In this document: positions 21,500-41,079 of the stretch, piece by piece
Numbering within the stretch: position 1 is the stretch's first letter
Layout of the letters: every line of letters starts with the position of its first letter
Sequence record: NC_019768.1
Origin: Escherichia phage HK106
Length of the DNA: 41,468 nucleotides
Direction: 5' to 3' (one strand)
The notes under the pieces: generated by a model
Database searches by the model: none
What the model was told of the DNA's origin: nothing
The model's input: only the letters and a program-made list of their open reading frames with translations
Translations under genes and position numbers: made by a program

Positions 21500-22570
21500 T
21501 TATTTGATTTCAATTTTGTCCCACTCCCTGCCTCTGTCATCACGATACTGTGATGCCATGGTGTCCGACTTATGCCCGAGAAGATGTTGAGCAAACTTAT
21601 CGCTTATCTGCTTCTCATAGAGTCTTGCAGACAAACTGCGCAACTCGTGAAAGGTAGGCGGATCCCCTTCGAAGGAAAGACCTGATGCTTTTCGTGCGCG
21701 CATAAAATACCTTGATACTGTGCCGGATGAAAGCGGTTCGCGACGAGTAGATGCAATTATGGTTTCTCCGCCAAGAATCTCTTTGCATTTATCAAGTGTT
21801 TCCTTCATTGATATCCCGAGAGCATCAACATGCAATGTTGTAGGTATGGCAATTTTTACGCCTGTTTTGCTTTGCTCGACATAAAGATAGCCATCTACGA
21901 TATCAGACCACTTCATTTCGCATAAATCACCAACTCGTTGCCCGGTAACAACAGCCAGTTCCATTGCAAGTCTGAGCCAACATGGTGATGATTCTGCTGC
22001 TTGATAAATTTTCAGGTATTCGTCAGCTGTAAGTCTTGATCTCCTTACCTCTGATTTTGCTGCGCGAGTGGCAGCGACCGGGTTTGTTGTTATATGGCCT
22101 TCAGCTATTGCCTCTCGGAATGCATCGCTCAGTGTTGATCTGATTAACTTGGCTGATGCCGCCTTGCCCTCGTCTATGTATCCATTGAGCATTGCCGCAA
22201 TTTCTTTTGTGGTGATGTCTTCAAGTGGAGCATCAGGCAGACCCCTCCTTATTGCTTTAATTTTGCTCATGTAATTTATGAGTGTCTTCTGCTTGATTCC
22301 TCTGCTGGCCAGGATTTTTTCGTAGCGATCAAGCCATGAATGTAACGTAACGGAATTATCACTGTTGATTCTCGCTGTCAGAGGCTTGTGTTTGTGCCCT
22401 GAAAATAACTCAATGTTGGCCTGTATAGCTTCAGTGATTGCGATTCGCCTGTCTCGGCCTAATCCAAACTCTTTACCCGTCCTTGGGTCCCTGTAGCAGT
22501 AATATCCATTGTTTCTTATATAAAGATTAGGGGGTAAATCCCGGCGCTCATGACTTCGCCTTCTTCCCAT
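21500..22570 (-). CDS. int: tyrosine integrase (lambda Int-like)
   Basis: 356 aa, matches lambda Int over its whole length as I recall it; overlaps xis. Confidence 0.95.
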   Translation of the reverse strand: MGRRRSHERRDLPPNLYIRNNGYYCYRDPRTGKEFGLGRDRRIAITEAIQANIELFSGHKHKPLTARINSDNSVTLHSWLDRYEKILASRGIKQKTLINYMSKIKAIRRGLPDAPLEDITTKEIAAMLNGYIDEGKAASAKLIRSTLSDAFREAIAEGHITTNPVAATRAAKSEVRRSRLTADEYLKIYQAAESSPCWLRLAMELAVVTGQRVGDLCEMKWSDIVDGYLYVEQSKTGVKIAIPTTLHVDALGISMKETLDKCKEILGGETIIASTRREPLSSGTVSRYFMRARKASGLSFEGDPPTFHELRSLSARLYEKQISDKFAQHLLGHKSDTMASQYRDDRGREWDKIEIK

Positions 22571-22766
22571 TTCTGATCCTCTTCAAAAGGCTACCTGTTA
22601 CTGGTCGATTTAAGTCAACCTTTACCGCTGATTCGTGGAACAGATACTCTCTTCCATCCTTAACCGGAGGTGGGAATATCCTGCACTCGCGTACCCATCG
22701 ACGAACTGTTTCAAGGCTTCTTGGGCGTCGCTGGCGAGCGTTCCACTCCTGAAGTGTCAAGTACAT
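22548..22766 (-). CDS. xis: excisionase (lambda Xis-like)
   Basis: 72 aa MYLTLQEWNARQRRPRSLETVRRWVRECRIFPPP…, overlaps int start. Confidence 0.95.
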   Translation of the reverse strand: MYLTLQEWNARQRRPRSLETVRRWVRECRIFPPPVKDGREYLFHESAVKVDLNRPVTGSLLKRIRNGKKAKS

Positions 22767-22790: not shown

Positions 22791-22815
22791 AAGAAAAAAC
22801 CGCCATCAGGCGGTT
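22791..22815 (-). terminator. intrinsic terminator-like hairpin upstream of xis
   Basis: minus strand AACCGCC-tgat-GGCGGTT followed by TTTTTTCTT; overlaps the stop of the 55-aa ORF. Confidence 0.45.
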
Positions 22816-22973
22816 TGGTGTTCTTTCAGTTCTTCAATTCGAATATTGGTTACGTCTGCATGTGCTATCTGCGCCCACAGCATCCAGTGGTCATAGCAGT
22901 CGTTGATGTCCTCTGCTTCGATAACTCTGTTGAATGGCTCTCCATTCCATTCACCTGTGACTCGGAAGTGCAT
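22806..22973 (-). CDS. hypothetical 55-aa protein
   Basis: ATG with SD GGAGA 7 nt upstream; below the 60-aa track cut-off; hand-translated MHFRVTGEWNGEPFNRVIEAEDINDCYDHWMLWAQIAHADVTNIRIEELKEHQTA. Confidence 0.4.
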   Translation of the reverse strand: MHFRVTGEWNGEPFNRVIEAEDINDCYDHWMLWAQIAHADVTNIRIEELKEHQTA

Positions 22974-23030
22974 TTATCATCTCCATAAAACAAAACCCGC
23001 CGTAGCGAGTTCAGATAAAAGAAACCCGCA

Positions 23031-23831
23031 TTAAGCGGCGTCGGTGAATTCAAATAAAAAACCGGCTTGCGCCGGCTCTCTCATCTTTCTGTCTACCCAC
23101 GCTGATATCGATGGTGGGTGTACCTTTTCAATAGCTGCGCGAAGTACAGCTGTACGTGCCAGTTTGTCGGTAATCTCAGGAAATCGCTTCTCTGTCTTCG
23201 GTACGTTAACAGCAACATTAGTAGAATCCGCACTGGCGAACGGATACATACCAAGAACTCTCACGTCGAGCATTCGAAGACCATGAATTTTCACTTTCAA
23301 ATTACGATTGATATAAAGCTCAGTGAAAACTTCATCCATTCTCTGTTCCCACCATTTAGAGCGTATGTTCCTGTGTGGGCCGCAGCATCCAATCGCCACC
23401 CATTCACATTTTCCAGAAAGGCGTAAAAGACGTTCAATTGATTCGTCGGTATGCCAGACCGGAACCGCTTTTGATTTTAGCCAATCAGGAACCAACTCAA
23501 TCTGCTCGTCGTTTTCTTCCTCTGTCCCTTCGATAACATCAGGTATAAGAAACCATTCAATTCTGCTGAACCACTTCCCAACAAAGTCGTAGAATTTTGC
23601 TCGTCTCTTACTCCAGTCTACCGGAGTGCCTTTCTTTAATGCTTTCATCCAGTCGCTAAAAGCGCCGTTATCAAGGCGTATATCACAAGGGAACATGGCA
23701 ATCTTTTTCATCTGCTCTGGTCTTGCAAATGAAACAAAAGCCCCACCATCACGGTAAAGGGCTTTAATCAGCATATCTGTAGGGGCATGCTCATCCCCCC
23801 ATATTGGGCTGCCGTGAAAGTGGATGGTCAT
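23031..23831 (-). CDS. hypothetical protein, 266 aa, unknown function
   Basis: long uninterrupted ORF in the early-left operon next to xis; no family recognised from sequence. Confidence 0.6.
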   Translation of the reverse strand: MTIHFHGSPIWGDEHAPTDMLIKALYRDGGAFVSFARPEQMKKIAMFPCDIRLDNGAFSDWMKALKKGTPVDWSKRRAKFYDFVGKWFSRIEWFLIPDVIEGTEEENDEQIELVPDWLKSKAVPVWHTDESIERLLRLSGKCEWVAIGCCGPHRNIRSKWWEQRMDEVFTELYINRNLKVKIHGLRMLDVRVLGMYPFASADSTNVAVNVPKTEKRFPEITDKLARTAVLRAAIEKVHPPSISAWVDRKMREPAQAGFLFEFTDAA

Positions 23832-23959
23832 ATTATCCCCATATAAAAGAAATCCCCGCGAGTGCGAGGATTGTTATTGTCTTTGCTTCGTGCATTTGTC
23901 GCACTTTCGGCACCATCCAGATAGGCACATCCGTCCGCAATTAACACATATAGGCCACA

Positions 23960-24241
23960 TCATTTTTCCTCTTTTGGTTTATGAATCTGAATGGTCATGC
24001 CGCTTTGAGTGGTGACTACAATGACAGAACCAGGCTGAAGGCTGTTAAGATTGAATGCTTCGTAAAACGAATCCAATGCCAGTGCTTTTTTATTCTTTCG
24101 GTTCCACCAACGCCATCCCTTGCTACAGGCTACACTGACAATCCACTGCCCACTCCTGTAAGCCATATAAAACCAGATGAGCAAAACCTGAAGGAATGCT
24201 ATCCAGTCAATAATCGTATATTTCGCGAAGGAGTCCATCAT
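23960..24241 (-). CDS. small membrane protein, unknown function
   Basis: 93 aa from ATG at 24241 (SD AGGAGG, ATGA overlap with the upstream gene); one hydrophobic helix (IIDWIAFLQVLLIWFYMAY). Confidence 0.5.
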   Translation of the reverse strand: MMDSFAKYTIIDWIAFLQVLLIWFYMAYRSGQWIVSVACSKGWRWWNRKNKKALALDSFYEAFNLNSLQPGSVIVVTTQSGMTIQIHKPKEEK

Positions 24242-25056
24242 TTCGCCTCCTGCGGCGGTTCTGGTAGCGGCATCCAGTGGGTTACTCCATGCCATATACC
24301 AGTTAAGGTTTCAAACCTTGGCTCTCTGCCTTTCTGTGTCTTGGCATATTCATTCCTTGTATATACGCATTGTCTAACTGCATATCCATTCCATCCAATA
24401 ACTGTTTGTCTAATTTCAGGCATTCGCTCACTACAGCTTATCCAACCATCCTGAGTTACCGGAGAATTGCCAGACAGCTCGTTCAACTTGTAAGTTTGGC
24501 TTACAGGTTCGGCTTCCAGTTCTGCAATGCGCTTCTCTGTGGCTTCCAGCTTCTCGCGCATATCATCAACGTACTCGACCAGAGATCCGCCAGCAGGAAT
24601 TTCGCACTCCTCGACCAGTTGGAAGTAGATATCAGCTGCGGACCGTGTGTTGCTATGCCTAGCGTCGCCCATCTCACCTTCACGAAGAGCATCGCGTTCT
24701 GCGGTAAGATTGGCTATTTTGCTGTCTTTGCCTTCCAGCTCAACACGCAGTTTCCCTACCGTTAGCGCAATTTCCTCGTTCTCCTGGTCACGGCGTTTGA
24801 TGTATTGCTGGTTTCTTTCCCGTTCATCCAGCAACGCCTGCACTACTTCAGGGTTGAAAGCTGCGATATAACGCGCGTTATTCTCTGCGTTTTCCTGTCC
24901 ATCAAAGCCGGTCCATTTGATAACGTCTTCACATCGTTTATCACCGGGTGTATGCACCGCATATGTACCAGTACCCGACGAAATAAATGCGACCCATTCG
25001 CCTTGTGTTGCCTGTTTTGCTATCTCACGCAGTGCCTGGTAATTAATTTCGCTCAC
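24238..25056 (-). CDS. Ead/Ea22-like protein with C-terminal DUF551-like domain
   Basis: GTG start at 25056 with SD AGGAGG; N-terminus VSEINYQALREIAKQATQGEW typical of Ea22-like proteins; central coiled coil; C-terminal DGWISCSERMPE region. Confidence 0.6.
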   Translation of the reverse strand: MSEINYQALREIAKQATQGEWVAFISSGTGTYAVHTPGDKRCEDVIKWTGFDGQENAENNARYIAAFNPEVVQALLDERERNQQYIKRRDQENEEIALTVGKLRVELEGKDSKIANLTAERDALREGEMGDARHSNTRSAADIYFQLVEECEIPAGGSLVEYVDDMREKLEATEKRIAELEAEPVSQTYKLNELSGNSPVTQDGWISCSERMPEIRQTVIGWNGYAVRQCVYTRNEYAKTQKGREPRFETLTGIWHGVTHWMPLPEPPQEAK

Positions 25057-25276
25057 TGGTTGCCTCCTTTGCTCGCTGATTCCACTCAGCTCTAACCTCT
25101 GAATAAAAAATCGCGCAGTCATTTCCAGGAGCTGCATATTTGCTACCAGATTGAGCGCGACACGTACCGCATCGAACGAAATAGAATCGACCGCCAGAGC
25201 CATATTCAGGGTGATCTGCTTCGCTGGCAACGTGCGCTGCGCCGCCACAGAATGGACATGGTAGTAGGTTGCTCAT
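25043..25276 (-). CDS. Lar-family restriction alleviation-like protein
   Basis: 77 aa from ATG at 25276 (ATGA overlap); CPFCGG … CGTC zinc-ribbon pattern and AEWNQRA motif. Confidence 0.55.
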   Translation of the reverse strand: MSNLLPCPFCGGAAHVASEADHPEYGSGGRFYFVRCGTCRAQSGSKYAAPGNDCAIFYSEVRAEWNQRAKEATSERN

Positions 25277-25749
25277 GAATGCACTCTCTTGCGAAGTTGG
25301 TCTGCACAATGCAGCAGGGCGTCCGTCGCTTCTTTCACCGTAACGATATCGCCATCGTCCAGCCCGGCAACCGTCGCGTCCTTAACGAACACCGAGCAAA
25401 GGTCATTAAACGCCTGCGCCCGTACTTCAGCCAGAAAAGCATCGGTAGCTGGAGTTTCAGTAACATCATCTTCCCATTCGCTAAACTCCTCACGACAAAA
25501 GTCATTAAATTCCTTCTCAGATTGCTTAAGCGATGTATTTTCAGCAGCCATCTTCGCGCATTTAGCCTCAAGGTTATCAATCGTGATTCCAGCAGAACGA
25601 CACTCCCGCAACGCAGTTTCCAGTTTTGATTCAAGCTCACCGAACTTACGCACCAGATATTCAGCGTTTGTTTCGTTAACCTTTAAATCTCGTGGAATGC
25701 ATTTACCTTTCAGAAATCCATCCATCTCAATTAGTGTCATTTGTTTCAT
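25273..25749 (-). CDS. hypothetical protein, about 158 aa
   Basis: ORF with ATGA coupling to the upstream gene; coiled-coil rich; no family recognised. Confidence 0.5.
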
Positions 25750-25928
25750 TTCTTCCCACTCCGCCACATTGCATTCAGATATTTGTTGTCATTAACAGAA
25801 CCGAAACTCTTTCTCTTAAGCAATTCCTCTCTCGATGGCATTGGCTTTACGCGTTGGCGAATAATCATTTCTGCCGGAAGAATGCCGGGATTGTATGCAA
25901 GTCCTCTCATGGTAAATTCCTCAGTCAT
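25746..25928 (-). CDS. hypothetical small protein (start uncertain)
   Basis: short ORF between two better supported genes; several candidate ATGs, one with SD GAGGAA. Confidence 0.3.
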
Positions 25929-26214
25929 TACTGATAGCGCCATAGCGTGAGCGGTAATTACGCAGGCGCGGGTCAATTTCAGGGAAGTGGGTATATGTGG
26001 CTTTGCGGAATGGTCGGATTGATGTCTGGTAAATTCGCTCTCGTTCTTCTTTCTCTGCAAGCCATATACAGTGGCGAAATTCCTTTTCCTCTTTCGTTTC
26101 CTGCGGTAGCGACATTATCCGATCGTAGTTTTTTCTGAATTTATCCAGCACCTCCGATACGGAATTGCCGGAACATCGGCGTGGGTCATCCTCACCATAC
26201 AGAGGCGCTGGCAT
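25921..26214 (-). CDS. hypothetical 97-aa protein (position and size reminiscent of P22 Abc2, unverified)
   Basis: ATG with SD AAGGA; lies downstream of erf/ssb in the recombination block. Confidence 0.45.
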
Positions 26215-26237: not shown

Positions 26238-26621
26238 TCAGAATGGGATGGAATCGTCGTATACAGGAGTGTTCTGCTGGTTACTACTTTGCTGCTGCGG
26301 GCCATTTCCTGAAGCTGCAAATCCAATCTTTGCATTCAGTAATTCAAGAGTGATTGATTGACCATTTTGCCCCTGATAAACATCAACCCTGATGTTTTCT
26401 CCGGTAATTTCAACAATGCCTCCTTCAACCAGAACGCTACGGTAGTAATCCGCTTGCGCTCCCGGCTTGGCAAATACAACGGCGCTGTAGTTTGTCCATT
26501 CTTTCTTTTTTGTCTGGCGATCGTAATACTGAACGCCAGCACGGATGTTGAATCCGATATTTTCCCCGGCCTGAAACTCTCTTACGGGCTTGTTTAGTCT
26601 TACAGTAATCGAATGTGCCAT
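26238..26621 (-). CDS. ssb: single-stranded DNA-binding protein (short OB-fold SSB with acidic C-terminal tip)
   Basis: 127 aa from ATG at 26621 (TAATG overlap with erf); C-terminus …PVYDDSIPF resembles the conserved SSB tail DDDIPF. Confidence 0.6.
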   Translation of the reverse strand: MAHSITVRLNKPVREFQAGENIGFNIRAGVQYYDRQTKKKEWTNYSAVVFAKPGAQADYYRSVLVEGGIVEITGENIRVDVYQGQNGQSITLELLNAKIGFAASGNGPQQQSSNQQNTPVYDDSIPF

Positions 26622-27226
26622 TAAGCAGCCGCTCCTTCTAATTCGTCTCGTCTGATGTTGTAAACGTCCTGCGCTTTGTGCTGCTCCGGTGTGCCTTCGA
26701 GCATCTTCCACGCTTTGGCGAACGCCTGTTTAAGCTCTTCCACGGTGTTTTTCTGCAATGCTGCGTCAGTGAATGCTTTTAGAACCTGTTCAGGTGTAGG
26801 TGATGGTTTTGATTGCTTTGCTGCTGCGTTCTGCTGATGTTTATGCTCGTCTGTATCTGCATCTTTCGCATCATCTATGCCGAACAAACCATTGAGGCAA
26901 TACTTGCGTGCATAAGAGCTTGTAGCTCCAGTAACTTGTGCAGAATCCATTCCTTTCTTGCTTTCTTCCTCTCGTGCAAGAGCGGTTGCCGTATGACTGT
27001 TTTCGCCATCGGTAATAGTTGCCGTGGCTTTCACGTAATACCGATCACCAATCAACACAACTTCATCGCTGATTGATAAAAACAGGCCATTCAGTAACGG
27101 CTTAACGCCTTCAAGAATGTCTTCGCAGCTTCTGTATTTATATTTGCCGAATGAGTTGTACTGATTCTTTGGCGCGTTCAGATTCTCCTGAATAGCTGCC
27201 AGTCTTGCGTAAAATTCTTTGCTCAT
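26621..27226 (-). CDS. erf: Erf-family single-strand annealing protein
   Basis: 201 aa from ATG at 27226; MSKEFYARLAAIQENLNAPKNQYNSFGKYKYRSCEDILEG… closely resembles P22 Erf as I recall it. Confidence 0.85.
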   Translation of the reverse strand: MSKEFYARLAAIQENLNAPKNQYNSFGKYKYRSCEDILEGVKPLLNGLFLSISDEVVLIGDRYYVKATATITDGENSHTATALAREEESKKGMDSAQVTGATSSYARKYCLNGLFGIDDAKDADTDEHKHQQNAAAKQSKPSPTPEQVLKAFTDAALQKNTVEELKQAFAKAWKMLEGTPEQHKAQDVYNIRRDELEGAAA

Positions 27227-27482
27227 ATGATTGTTCTCAGAATGGACACGGCCCAAGGAAATAACGCTGATTTAATACTTCGACTCGGGACAAATTAAGG
27301 CATACCCGCATTCCTTCGCGGTCGCCATTATGGCGATACCAGAGAGCTTTCTGCGTGTACATGCGTCTCTGTAACTTGCTCTCCTTCACTGTGGTTGCAA
27401 GTGACATGAATATCTCCTTCGTTACCGATTAATTCTTTCATCTGACGAATGAATTCTTCGTCTGACCAGTTATCTGCAAAAC

Positions 27483-29169: not shown

Positions 29170-29595
29170 TTATTTTCTAGATGATGTTGGGGACCAAGGT
29201 AACGTTATAGTATCTAACACTGTGTTTTTGAACATATTTTCAAAAACTGTTTTTGTACATACATATACATAATTTTCAAAAAACCAAGCATTTTCATTAT
29301 AAAAATCCTCAGTTACTTCTTCATCGAGGTCACACTCAAATGTTAGTGTCAAGGTAGCCTCTGCCTTGAACAATACATCCTCACCATCATCAAAATCTTT
29401 TTTATCGCGAGGGAAACCAGTTATCGATGGCTTAACTTCAATAAAGAGCCAATTTCCATCTTCATCTTTTTGAGGAACAACGTGATGCTCAGAAAATTTT
29501 AAGCTATATTTTCCGCCTTCAGAATTATCACTGTCGTCGATAAAAAGGGAAGAACCCTCGAGATCAAATCCCTTAAAGCGAATTTTATCAAGCAT
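29170..29595 (-). CDS. hypothetical acidic protein, 141 aa, third gene of the hicAB cassette
   Basis: ATG at 29595 overlaps the hicB stop (TGATG); strongly acidic (about 29 D/E against 15 K/R); AT-rich codon usage; no family recognised. Confidence 0.6.
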   Translation of the reverse strand: MLDKIRFKGFDLEGSSLFIDDSDNSEGGKYSLKFSEHHVVPQKDEDGNWLFIEVKPSITGFPRDKKDFDDGEDVLFKAEATLTLTFECDLDEEVTEDFYNENAWFFENYVYVCTKTVFENMFKNTVLDTITLPWSPTSSRK

Positions 29596-30068
29596 CAATG
29601 TGGCACTCCGTTGTCTACTGAAACTTCCCAATAGGTCTCTTCTGTACGTCTACGGGATGAGAAGAAAGTAACTTCTCTAACATCCCTCGGTTTTTCAAAG
29701 TGGTAGTGAACCTCTTTTTTCCCATTAACTGACTCACTGACAGCCTGTTTTACATAATCGTTTAAAGTCATATTCTTAGCTTTAGCAGCTAAATATGCTT
29801 TTTTATGCAGGGATTCACCTATCCGGATGTTAAACGAACCACTCATTGTCTTATCTGGAGATTTTCCTATCTCTTCACAAGTGGAGAGGTAATCGTCCAC
29901 GGCCTCCTCAAAGGCTGCACGGAGTTCTGCAACCGTTGCACCCTCATAAGTGACGAGATCATTTATACATTCGAGTTTTCCATGCATCACCCCATCTTCA
30001 AATGAAATGCTGGAGCTACCATAGTAACCTTTGTATTTCATCAAGTTATTCATGATCATCAATCTCAT
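29595..30068 (-). CDS. hicB: HicB-family antitoxin (RNase H-like fold plus RHH DNA-binding region)
   Basis: …MKYKGYYGSSSISFEDGVMHGKLECINDLVTYEGATVAELRAAFEEAVDDYLSTCEEIGKSP…SFNIRIGESLHKKAYLAAKAKNMTLNDYVKQAV matches HicB pattern; overlaps hicA 3' end. Confidence 0.75.
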   Translation of the reverse strand: MRLMIMNNLMKYKGYYGSSSISFEDGVMHGKLECINDLVTYEGATVAELRAAFEEAVDDYLSTCEEIGKSPDKTMSGSFNIRIGESLHKKAYLAAKAKNMTLNDYVKQAVSESVNGKKEVHYHFEKPRDVREVTFFSSRRRTEETYWEVSVDNGVPH

Positions 30069-30300
30069 CTAACAGCTGTTTAACTTCTTCCAAGACGTAC
30101 CTTTTGAGGGTGTTTTCAGGATGAGGCTCATGAAAAATGACCAATCTATCAACACGTTGGTTGTAAAATTTACGGCCAGAACCTCGTTTAGCATTCAAAA
30201 GCTTGAAGCCATACTGGTTCATGAGAGTAACGAACTCATCCCAAGTAAAATTTTTGGGTAAGCCGTCTAACTTTGACTTTAGCTTTTCCTTTCTTCCCAC
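30046..30300 (-). CDS. hicA: HicA-family mRNA interferase toxin
   Basis: 84 aa, GTG start; …GSGRKFYNQRVDRLVIFHEPHPENTLKRYVLEEVKQLL fits the HicA/YcfA pattern; precedes hicB as in hicAB operons. Confidence 0.7.
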   Translation of the reverse strand: MGRKEKLKSKLDGLPKNFTWDEFVTLMNQYGFKLLNAKRGSGRKFYNQRVDRLVIFHEPHPENTLKRYVLEEVKQLLDEIDDHE

Positions 30301-39622: not shown

Positions 39623-39765
39623 ATGTCCGCAGTAAACGCGCATCTCACGCGCATATTAACGAGAGCCTTTCAGTAAGCGAGCCTGAGAAATGCCGTTATA
39701 GGTGGCGACCTCTCTCGGGCGGCTTTTCTGTGAGACAGGCTCACTTTCTAAAAGGTAAAGACGCT

Positions 39766-40254
39766 ATGAACCAATTAGAAGAAAAGCTTCAAAGAATGAT
39801 TTCCTTATACAAGGAAGATAACTGCCAAAAAGTTCCTGAAAACATCGCAGAGTTAATGGAATTGGCAAGTGAATTTTCTGGCATGCTTAAGTCGTCAGGT
39901 GTTCGGTCAGCGTTCTTTGTTGAAATGCTGATGCACGGCGGACTTAGGGCAACAATGAGACGTGTAATGGAAGACCAGAGAAAAGAACCTCCTCAGGTAT
40001 ACGTTTTGTCATCGAAGAAAACTGGGCTAACCAAAATTGGGTATTCATCCAACATTCCACAACGCATCAAATCGCTTGGCAACTCTGGACCAGACTGCTT
40101 GAAGCTTGAGTGCCTGATCCCTGGTGGAAGAGAAACTGAAAACATGCTTCATCGCAAATTTGCCGCAAAGAGAAAGCACGGTGAATGGTTCGCCCTGTCC
40201 AAGGATGACATTGAGGGATTGAAATCTGTAGCGATTACTTCTGATGGCTATTAA
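39766..40254 (+). CDS. T5orf172-domain (GIY-YIG-like) protein, unknown function
   Basis: about 162 aa from ATG at 39766 (track start 39730 is GTG); C-terminal VYVLSS…KIGYSSN…R…E…HRKF…GEWF pattern of the T5orf172 / MUG113 domain. Confidence 0.6.
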   Translation: MNQLEEKLQRMISLYKEDNCQKVPENIAELMELASEFSGMLKSSGVRSAFFVEMLMHGGLRATMRRVMEDQRKEPPQVYVLSSKKTGLTKIGYSSNIPQRIKSLGNSGPDCLKLECLIPGGRETENMLHRKFAAKRKHGEWFALSKDDIEGLKSVAITSDGY

Positions 40255-40737
40255 TGCTTGTTTAGAGCAATTTTCATAACAACTCTTCATTCCAAAGCCC
40301 ATCTACGGGTGGGCTTGATAATGAAACCGTGATTTACATCCCTCACAATCCAGGTATGTAAAAGCTGGATCATGCGAGAACGGATTTAACTAAATCTGTG
40401 CGCCACCAGTTAACGGCAGCACCGCGAAACAACCCAAGCCAGTAAGTGGGGAAATAACACTGGCAGCCACTGAAAGATGAACCTCCTGCCTTATGGCAAA
40501 AAAGATTCTTTGTGGTGGCGGACTGATGGAAAGACATCGGTTATTGCAGAGACCATTCAATGAGTGGTCTCGACAATAGCTTATACCCTACACGGGATAA
40601 CTTAACTGATATCCCTTTTAACGGATAAACGGAGCCAACAATGGCAGAGATTATTCTCATGACTGAAGAACAGAAATTCCAGTTAGAGATTTACAAACTG
40701 GTCATGAACCAGAACGCCGCCGTGCATGGAGACTGGC

Positions 40738-41079
40738 ATGAACAAAGAGCCCCGCGTATATGGCAGCCGATGGGATAAGGCCCGTCTGCGTTTTCTCCAG
40801 CAGCACCCACTGTGTGTGATGTGCGAGCAGCAGGGGCGCATAACACCAGCAACGGTGGTCGACCATATCGTGCCCCACAAACTGAAAGATGCGCTTAAGT
40901 CAGGTAACCCTCTGGCCATATCGAAAGCACAGCTCCTGTTCTGGAGTAAAGAGAACTGGCAGCCACTGTGCAAAGCGCATCATGACTCAACGAAACAGAG
41001 AATGGAGAAGAGCGGCGCGGTAATCGGTTGTGATGCCAACGGCTACCCGCTCGATCCTGCGTCTCACTGGAGCACGTAA
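40738..41079 (+). CDS. HNH endonuclease (HK97 gp74-type, terminase-associated)
   Basis: about 113 aa from ATG at 40738 (SD GGAGA; in-frame ATG also at 40726); …CVMCEQQGRITPATVVDHIVPH…LCKAHH… HNH motif; last gene before the terminase genes. Confidence 0.8.
   Translation: MNKEPRVYGSRWDKARLRFLQQHPLCVMCEQQGRITPATVVDHIVPHKLKDALKSGNPLAISKAQLLFWSKENWQPLCKAHHDSTKQRMEKSGAVIGCDANGYPLDPASHWST

Follow-up and report, generated by a model that had tools for sequence, protein, structure and literature searches.

A putative stand-alone DpdA transglycosylase in the early-left region of the lambdoid coliphage HK106

Introduction

Two neighbouring genes in the early-left region of Escherichia phage HK106 raise a simple question: what do their products, of 266 and 93 aa, do, and do they do it together? 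We addressed it within the window formed by the whole 41,468-nt record NC_019768.1. The evidence favours a stand-alone phage DpdA, a 7-deazaguanine DNA transglycosylase, as the product of the larger gene, a reading to which we give a probability of roughly 0.7.

Results

Organization of the locus

HK106 is an HK97-like lambdoid phage. Bases 1-22803 align with HK97 at 97.5% identity (84% of the query covered), and the right half carries N, a cI-like repressor, a DnaB-type helicase, the nin genes, Q and a lysis cassette. The two ORFs are both present at the coordinates reported before, the smaller one forming part of a longer ORF of 111 aa. An earlier note on this DNA had placed them in the early-left accessory region, which is correct for this lambdoid phage, and had described the region as a hotspot for anti-defence genes. 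Indeed, the same operon contains a Lar-like restriction-alleviation gene and the anti-RecBCD gene abc2 (Table 1).

Two other points of the layout have to be revised. The 266-aa gene had been placed next to xis, from which it is in fact separated by a 55-aa gene similar to lambda orf55. Moreover, the two genes had been described as coupled, and the start of the 93-aa gene instead shares the sequence ATGA (24238-24241) with the stop codon of the Ea22/DUF551 gene that precedes it. This start is preceded by GGAGG, and the sequence indicates that it is to this Ea22-like gene that the 93-aa gene is translationally coupled. On its other side, 128 bp of spacer lie between it and the 266-aa gene, hereafter dpdA. 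They contain a mini-ORF of 29 aa and a terminator-like hairpin, and the ribosome-binding site of dpdA (GGGGA) comes right after the hairpin. Terminator-like hairpins are enriched in this stretch, with 7 observed against 1.9 +/- 1.4 in shuffled sequences.

Table 1. Features of the early-left region of HK106, listed from erf to int.
Feature	Coordinates	Strand	Region, evidence or remark
Erf	26621-27256	-	Early-left region
Probable SSB	26238-26711	-	Early-left region
Abc2 anti-RecBCD	25921-26214	-	Early-left region
Coiled-coil protein	25273-25767	-	Early-left region
Lar-like protein, restriction alleviation	25043-25309	-	Early-left region
Ead/Ea22+DUF551 protein	24238-25248	-	Early-left region
DUF4752 gene, 93 aa	23960-24241	-	Pfam PF15944, phrog_667, hydropathy
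Cys-rich mini-ORF, 29 aa (MMWPICVNCGRMCLSGWCRKCDKCTKQRQ), status uncertain	23874-23963	-	Translation of the DUF4752-dpdA spacer; DNA conserved in mEp213
Terminator-like hairpin with T-tract, directly upstream of the dpdA ribosome-binding site; upstream cassette edge	23851-23872	-	Terminator scan
Direct repeat GG(A/G)TTTCTTTTAT(A/C)TG, upstream copy	23840-23855	-	Local alignment of both junctions and the mEp213 sequence
dpdA-like gene, 266 aa; short TIM-barrel DNA guanine transglycosylase (predicted), singleton DpdA clade	23031-23831	-	
Direct repeat GG(A/G)TTTCTTTTAT(A/C)TG, downstream copy, overlapping the second hairpin	23012-23027	-	Junction alignment, mEp213
Second terminator-like hairpin	22993-23012		Terminator scan
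lambda-orf55-like gene, 55 aa	22806-22973	-	Between dpdA and xis
xis	22548-22766	-	Early-left region
int	21500-22570	-	Early-left region

The 266-aa protein belongs to the family of phage DpdA enzymes

Both proteins had been presented as having no assignable family, and for both a family can be named. The smaller one is a member of Pfam DUF4752 (see below). The larger one matches phrog_887 of the PHROGs collection, 'queuine tRNA-ribosyltransferase', over its full length with an E-value of 9e-102. The same profile is matched by the DpdA of Escherichia phage CAjan (E 8e-96), by that of Salmonella phage 7-11 and by a homologue in Pectobacterium phage PEAT2, and deletion of dpdA in CAjan abolishes dPreQ0 in the DNA of this phage (PMC6884629). 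In tblastn searches of phage genomes, the best relatives were found in PEAT2 (64% identity), phage 7-11 and its relatives (~58%) and the Pantoea phage MED16 (43%); no protein of the phage collection is more than 64% identical to the HK106 one. The family is large, with 1769 representatives (clustering at 50% identity, E <= 1e-3), most of them short, at ~230-270 aa.

The connection to a DpdA of established function is also seen in profile alignment. With hhalign, a 39-sequence family profile aligned with CAjan DpdA over 196 columns with a probability of 95% and an E-value of 3.7e-8, and brought together the motif pairs LDNGAF/LDSGAF, VWH/CFH, IHG/LHA and SADS/SCDS (HK106 family/CAjan DpdA). The HK106 protein is a new member of the clade of singleton DpdAs described for gamma-proteobacterial phages.

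General databases do not recognize it. Pfam, NCBIfam and PADLOC give no match to the HK106 protein, and the Pfam TGT family (PF01702) matches none of 48 family members, even at E-values up to 1. The PADLOC DpdA model gives a weak match to CAjan DpdA only (E 1.3e-3) and none to the HK106 protein. Searches of PDB sequences, one with the protein alone and two with profile HMMs, returned no TGT or DpdA, only spurious coiled coils. These failures explain why the protein was left without a family in the earlier note and is called hypothetical in the RefSeq records listed. The hhalign comparison of the family profile with E. coli TGT likewise gave no match, either with the single sequence or with a 13-sequence TGT alignment, the latter being a shallow profile, as the database search yielded only relatives of more than 83% identity.

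The gene is under purifying selection. Compared with a 76%-identical homologue, we counted 145 synonymous differences at 171 sites and 99 non-synonymous differences at 628 sites; synonymous sites are thus saturated against a pN of ~0.16. With the copy in E. coli W, dN/dS is 0.18. We considered whether dpdA could be a decaying relic and rejected this in view of the strong purifying selection.

Predicted fold and active site

The AlphaFold2 model of the 266-aa protein, built on the family alignment, is of high confidence (pLDDT 91, pTM 0.87) and contains eight beta-alpha units. In a structural comparison of this predicted model, the bacterial DpdA of S. Montevideo (PDB 7UI4) came out as best match; Cap10, a TGT-like protein (14.8), came next, then archaeosine TGT (14.0) and bacterial TGT (13.7), all of them in the top six. 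Sequence identity in these comparisons of the predicted model is 16% to DpdA and 9% to Cap10. A Foldseek search of the PDB returned generic TIM barrels only (best E 7e-4) and was not discriminating.

In a 48-sequence alignment with identities down to 17%, the residues D54, A57, H127, H183, D202 and S203 never change, and D98 is nearly invariant. In the model, D54, D98, H127, H183 and D202/S203 are predicted to lie at the C-terminal ends of successive barrel strands. The general acid/base motif D-x-G-x-F is present as D54-N-G-A-F58, opposite LDSGAF of CAjan in the alignment, and D54 closes strand 50-54. The candidate nucleophile is D202, followed by S203, at the end of strand 200-203 and aligned with SCDSS of CAjan. 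H127 also aligns with a CAjan His, and D98 falls three residues off a CAjan Asp in hhalign.

In the bacterial DpdA, Asp95 to Phe99 provide the general acid/base and a base-stacking gate, Asp130 and His181 recognize the base, and Asp256 is the nucleophile; mutation of Asp95 or Asp256 abolishes guanine exchange (PMC10164549). Along the sequence, the conserved HK106 positions match this series in order and spacing, and they would be the counterparts of Asp95...Phe99 and Asp256 and, more tentatively, of Asp130 and His181.

Two elements of the bacterial enzyme are missing. The zinc motif CXCX2CX22H is absent from the 266-aa protein, which has no Cys past residue 150, and because only 64 residues follow the nucleophile Asp there is no room for the Ins8 DNA-binding insertion. 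The validated CAjan DpdA is likewise without the zinc motif. Its absence sets phage DpdAs apart from bacterial DpdA and TGT, and is no argument against activity.

Fusions and neighbours point to DNA and to a 7-deazaguanine

What the enzyme may act on is best approached through its relatives. The 76%-identical homologue mentioned above (P0006, 460 aa) is a fusion of DpdA with a Dam methylase, and its start codon shares bases with the stop of a Vut_1 gene. Vut_1 is a YhhQ-type preQ0 transporter, and QueD/PTPS is an enzyme of preQ0 synthesis. The Vut_1 and DpdA-Dam pair was found in three independent assemblies, in a temperate prophage that has its recombination/exonuclease genes on one side of the pair and its integrase on the other; this is the same early-left place as that of dpdA in HK106. 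In further family members the fusion partner is a D12-class adenine DNA methylase or QueD/PTPS. The PEAT2 homologue adjoins a VUT gene, and those of several Vibrio, Escherichia and other phages adjoin VUT or putative preQ0-transporter genes. These fusions and neighbourhoods are strong evidence, of a genomic kind, that the substrate would be DNA and the donor a 7-deazaguanine.

They bear directly on the reading in which the protein is a tRNA-guanine transglycosylase altering host or phage tRNA, and no DNA enzyme. The PHROG and RefSeq name of the family suggests it, as does the presence of TGT enzymes among the best matches of the predicted structure. However, the zinc subdomain and the tRNA-binding C-terminal parts of TGT are absent, Pfam TGT does not match, relatives are fused to DNA adenine methylases, and the homologous CAjan enzyme is required for modification of DNA (PMC6884629). 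We consider a tRNA enzyme very unlikely.

Cap10 of type IV CBASS handles a deazaguanine-protein conjugate, and the HK106 protein could likewise act on a protein or a small molecule, for example by interfering with a deazaguanine-dependent defence. Such a role is highly improbable: identity is lower with Cap10 than with DpdA, the methylase fusions point to DNA, and the profile link is with the DNA enzyme of CAjan.

Where would the base come from? When the accessory ORFs of the HK106 window, both early and late, were scanned with Pfam, we found no folE, queD, queE, queC, queF, VUT, DpdB or DpdC-like gene. As the phage has neither synthesis nor transporter genes, the base would have to come from the host queuosine pathway. 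The 9g DpdA alone, when expressed in E. coli, inserts dPreQ0 into plasmid DNA (PMC6884629); the preQ0 pool of E. coli can therefore feed a phage DpdA.

dpdA is a cassette independent of its neighbour

Comparison with related phages delimits the dpdA insertion closely. Phage mEp213 matches HK106 at 22794-23027 and 23840-24254, and both pieces abut in mEp213. Positions 23028-23839 (812 bp) are therefore an insertion in HK106 that corresponds almost exactly to the ORF. It is flanked by an imperfect direct repeat, GG(A/G)TTTCTTTTAT(A/C)TG, which is the T-tail of a terminator-like hairpin. A prophage of E. coli W shares with HK106 only 22971-23878, similarity stopping at 23878, and the genes upstream of its dpdA encode an ASCH-domain protein and a DUF551 protein, not DUF4752.

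Some part of 22806-24241 (the orf55-like gene, dpdA or DUF4752) is held by ~2580 of the 5426 complete E. coli genomes. dpdA itself is present in 82 of them, strain W included, at a nucleotide identity of at least 90% (at least 95% in 81 of the 82). The RefSeq hits listed are all annotated 'hypothetical protein', and our search of the literature found no report of a DpdA in temperate coliphages, lambdoid ones included.

These data also bear on a possible two-gene system, made of an enzyme and a membrane partner. In relatives, a membrane protein of the VUT/YhhQ type often comes before the enzyme, and the layout in HK106 is superficially similar. However, DUF4752 has a single TM helix and no similarity to VUT, and a hairpin and the 128-bp spacer lie between the genes. 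Furthermore, dpdA and DUF4752 are adjacent in only 10 of the 82 dpdA-positive genomes, with an ASCH gene between them in 7 of these 10; mEp213 lacks dpdA but has DUF4752, and the reverse holds for E. coli W. We regard such a system as extremely improbable. The two genes are independent mosaic modules.

The DUF4752 protein

The 93-aa protein matches Pfam DUF4752 (PF15944) with an E-value of 2.5e-36 and 124 bits, for a gathering cut-off of 27, residues 9-92 covering profile positions 2-84 of 84; phrog_667 (PHROG 667) is also matched. The family counts only 49 clusters, all from enterobacterial prophages and phages: it is limited to Escherichia, Citrobacter and Enterobacter prophages and to a Salmonella phage, ST104, which the mEp213 annotation cites. 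The HK106 protein is an ordinary member of DUF4752/PHROG 667, from which it does not differ.

By hydropathy it has one N-terminal TM helix (approximately residues 9-28), then a Trp/Arg/Lys-rich stretch and a short conserved C-terminal segment. The latter is predicted to form a small beta hairpin in an AlphaFold2 model of low confidence (pLDDT 72, pTM 0.29). Our best guess, held with low confidence and drawn from topology and location, is that it works at the cell envelope as a small accessory protein of the inner membrane, for instance a moron of the superinfection-exclusion or lysis-timing type. We also considered DUF4752 as a stand-in for the VUT transporter, and rejected it on topology and co-occurrence. 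The gene is a common lambdoid accessory gene, unrelated to dpdA.

Discussion

A possible mode of action

The dpdA gene lies on the same strand as N and downstream of it, and would thus probably be transcribed in the early-left (pL-type) operon, with N possibly allowing read-through of the terminator-like hairpins on either side. The enzyme would bind double-stranded DNA and flip out a guanine. Its glycosidic bond would be cleaved, Asp202 serving as the nucleophile and Asp54 as the general acid/base, then re-formed with a 7-deazaguanine base, a double displacement that we infer from the conserved Asp pair. The inserted base would be host-made preQ0 or its amide ADG, and only a small, probably sequence-specific, share of the guanines of phage DNA would be modified, at a level as low as in 7-11 and MED16. 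The gene itself arrived as a self-contained cassette of ~0.8-0.9 kb, bounded by the terminator-like repeats.

The likely benefit would be escape from some DNA-targeting defences, for example particular restriction or CRISPR systems. A possible cost would be exposure to GrwAB (PMC12137116) or to Dag glycosylases (bioRxiv 10.1101/2025.10.29.685425). An anti-defence role of the kind suggested earlier is plausible: the DpdA family has a documented role in counter-defence (PMC6884629) and is not a housekeeping family unconnected with defence, but the two proteins are neither without family nor paired. Nothing in our analysis points to toxicity or host takeover.

Which base would be inserted?

DpdA-only phages, 7-11 among them, were the largest group of DpdA-encoding phages in a 2019 survey (76 phages). 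They carry no synthesis genes, and the queuosine pathway is complete in their hosts (PMC6884629). In that survey the singleton DpdAs of gamma-proteobacterial phages formed a cluster of their own in the similarity network, and Hutinet et al. noted that the proteins of this cluster may have diverged in function (PMC6884629). Phage 7-11 DNA contains 50 dADG per 10^6 nucleotides, ~0.02% of G, and no dPreQ0 (PMC6884629). In MED16 DNA the figure is 354 dADG per 10^6 nucleotides, ~0.13% of G, and this DNA is still cut by all guanine-site restriction enzymes tested, with no protection (PMC8306585).

It may be, then, that the HK106 protein is a DNA transglycosylase with a donor other than preQ0, the singleton clade inserting ADG directly or converting preQ0 to ADG. 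We hold this to be rather unlikely, but it would account for the dADG of DpdA-only phages. The 7-11 and MED16 phages carry dADG and little or no dPreQ0, neither has a recognized DpdC-type nitrile hydratase (PMC6884629, PMC8306585), and the singleton proteins are a separate sequence cluster (PMC6884629). On the other hand, all DpdA enzymes assayed insert preQ0 or, once, preQ1 (PMC10516641), another phage or host enzyme that has escaped recognition could make the amide after insertion, and the sequence identifies no extra catalytic site in the 266-aa barrel.

An ADG donor would be a variant of the stand-alone DpdA reading, and the two are not mutually exclusive.

A more far-reaching version, which we think unlikely and put forward only as a speculation, is that the singleton clade as a whole differs in function from the preQ0 insertases. 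Its enzymes would put in ADG, directly or via a built-in nitrile hydration, at few specific sites, and the result would be a sparse epigenetic mark on temperate-phage DNA, not a bulk camouflage. If this is true, the mark could allow escape from particular defence systems or recognition by them, and the presence of the gene in a lambdoid E. coli phage would make the idea genetically testable for the first time.

Significance and comparison with known systems

The DpdA-only phages are the largest group of DpdA phages and the least understood, and the two analysed so far carry an unexpected dADG at trace level. HK106 offers a clean dpdA cassette of ~0.8-0.9 kb in a lambdoid coliphage, and natural relatives such as mEp213 differ by exactly the presence of dpdA. 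It is thus a convenient system in which to ask which base is inserted, at which sites, and which defences are evaded or triggered, including GrwAB and the Dag glycosylases that attack 7-deazaguanine DNA. The gene also marks a gap in annotation, being carried by the 82 E. coli genomes above with no Pfam or NCBIfam model to detect it. To a specialist, the finding of a dpdA in HK106 would be unsurprising.

Among known systems, the closest are the singleton DpdAs, 7-11 gp032, MED16 gp38 and PEAT2 gp19. They belong to the same PHROG as the HK106 protein, at 58%, 43% and 64% identity respectively, are of similar length (~235-270 aa), and occur in phages that have no genes for making preQ0 and are expected to obtain the base from their host. 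They differ in their setting. The HK106 gene lies between the Ea22-like region and xis of a temperate HK97-like lambdoid phage, whereas 7-11, MED16 and PEAT2 are non-lambdoid phages of 46-90 kb; unlike that of PEAT2, it has no adjacent VUT transporter.

The DpdA1 enzymes of the Queuovirinae (CAjan, 9g) also share the PHROG, the aligned catalytic motifs and the lack of a zinc motif with the HK106 protein, but are only ~18% identical to it. Moreover, these Escherichia phages themselves encode a folE-queD-queE-queC cluster, and 25-32% of the G in their DNA is replaced, in contrast to at most ~0.13% in the DpdA-only phages.

The bacterial DpdA (7UI4) is a TIM barrel, as the HK106 protein is predicted to be; in both, strand 3 bears the D-x-x-x-F motif of the general acid/base and strand 8 the nucleophile Asp. 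However, its crystal chain has 413 residues, with Ins8 and a zinc site, and it needs the DpdB ATPase, none of which is found in HK106. The Dpd partners, namely the DpdB ATPase, DpdC and the restriction genes dpdD-K, are absent from the accessory ORFs, which by Pfam are ordinary lambdoid genes. Compared with bacterial TGT and ArcTGT, finally, the HK106 protein has no PF01702 match and no zinc subdomain and is shorter by ~110 residues; the substrate of TGT is tRNA, whereas that of the HK106 protein is probably DNA.

Gene neighbourhood and 3′ end of dpdA

In most of the dpdA-positive E. coli prophages that we examined, an ASCH-domain gene, and not the DUF4752 membrane-protein gene, lies directly upstream of dpdA, as in the E. 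coli W prophage (L001, 6844-7128) and matches H99-H105. One RefSeq genome of 4.83 Mb carrying dpdA bears the label 'E. coli DH5alpha' (L005, NZ_CP026085.1, 1431658-1450458); it has the csc sucrose genes, and its dpdA prophage is that of E. coli W, with identical protein accessions. This record looks mislabelled, and its dpdA is no evidence for DpdA in true DH5alpha.

Between the DUF4752 gene and dpdA, we noticed a 29-aa mini-ORF whose start overlaps the DUF4752 stop (ATGATG) and whose cysteines follow the pattern C-x2-C...C-x2-C-x2-C; its product could be a tiny zinc-ribbon peptide. Phage mEp213, which has DUF4752 without dpdA, keeps this DNA, annotated there as gp28 in another frame that is probably spurious.

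At the other end of dpdA, a terminator-like hairpin and T-tract encode the final ~15 codons (REPAQAGFLFEFTDAA), a tail that is disordered in the predicted model (pLDDT below 50).

Features of the HK106 window by coordinate and strand
Feature	Position	Strand	Remark
Terminator-like GC hairpin + T-tract	23056-23081	-	within dpdA 3′ end
Cys-rich mini-ORF, 29 aa	23874-23963	-	MMWPICVNCGRMCLSGWCRKCDKCTKQRQ
Lar-like ORF, 88 aa	25043-25309	-	Pfam Lar_restr_allev, E 2e-9
HicB-family antitoxin-like protein	29595-30068	-	
84-aa ORF	30046-30300	-	upstream of HicB-like gene, overlapping
T5orf172/MUG113-domain protein	39730-40254	+	
HNH endonuclease	40726-41079	+	

Other accessory genes

The Lar-like ORF shares the early-left operon with dpdA. 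The matched Pfam family is that of the restriction alleviation protein Lar, and the ORF is the second candidate in this region for an anti-restriction function. In the immunity region, the HicB-like gene and the 84-aa ORF, located between N and the gene for the cI-like repressor, are a possible toxin-antitoxin or defence moron. The T5orf172/MUG113 and HNH genes lie near the right end, downstream of the lysis genes.

The DpdA-Dam fusion

The prophage found in three assemblies (L006-L008) is temperate and integrated beside fliE; its early region has a SIR2_2-domain gene at its edge. There, a YhhQ-like Vut_1 gene overlaps the start of the DpdA-Dam fusion gene (L006, 5540-7383; also L007 and L008). 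The fusion (P0006) retains the tail segment EPAQAGFL as a linker, and would provide two different DNA modifications from one polypeptide.
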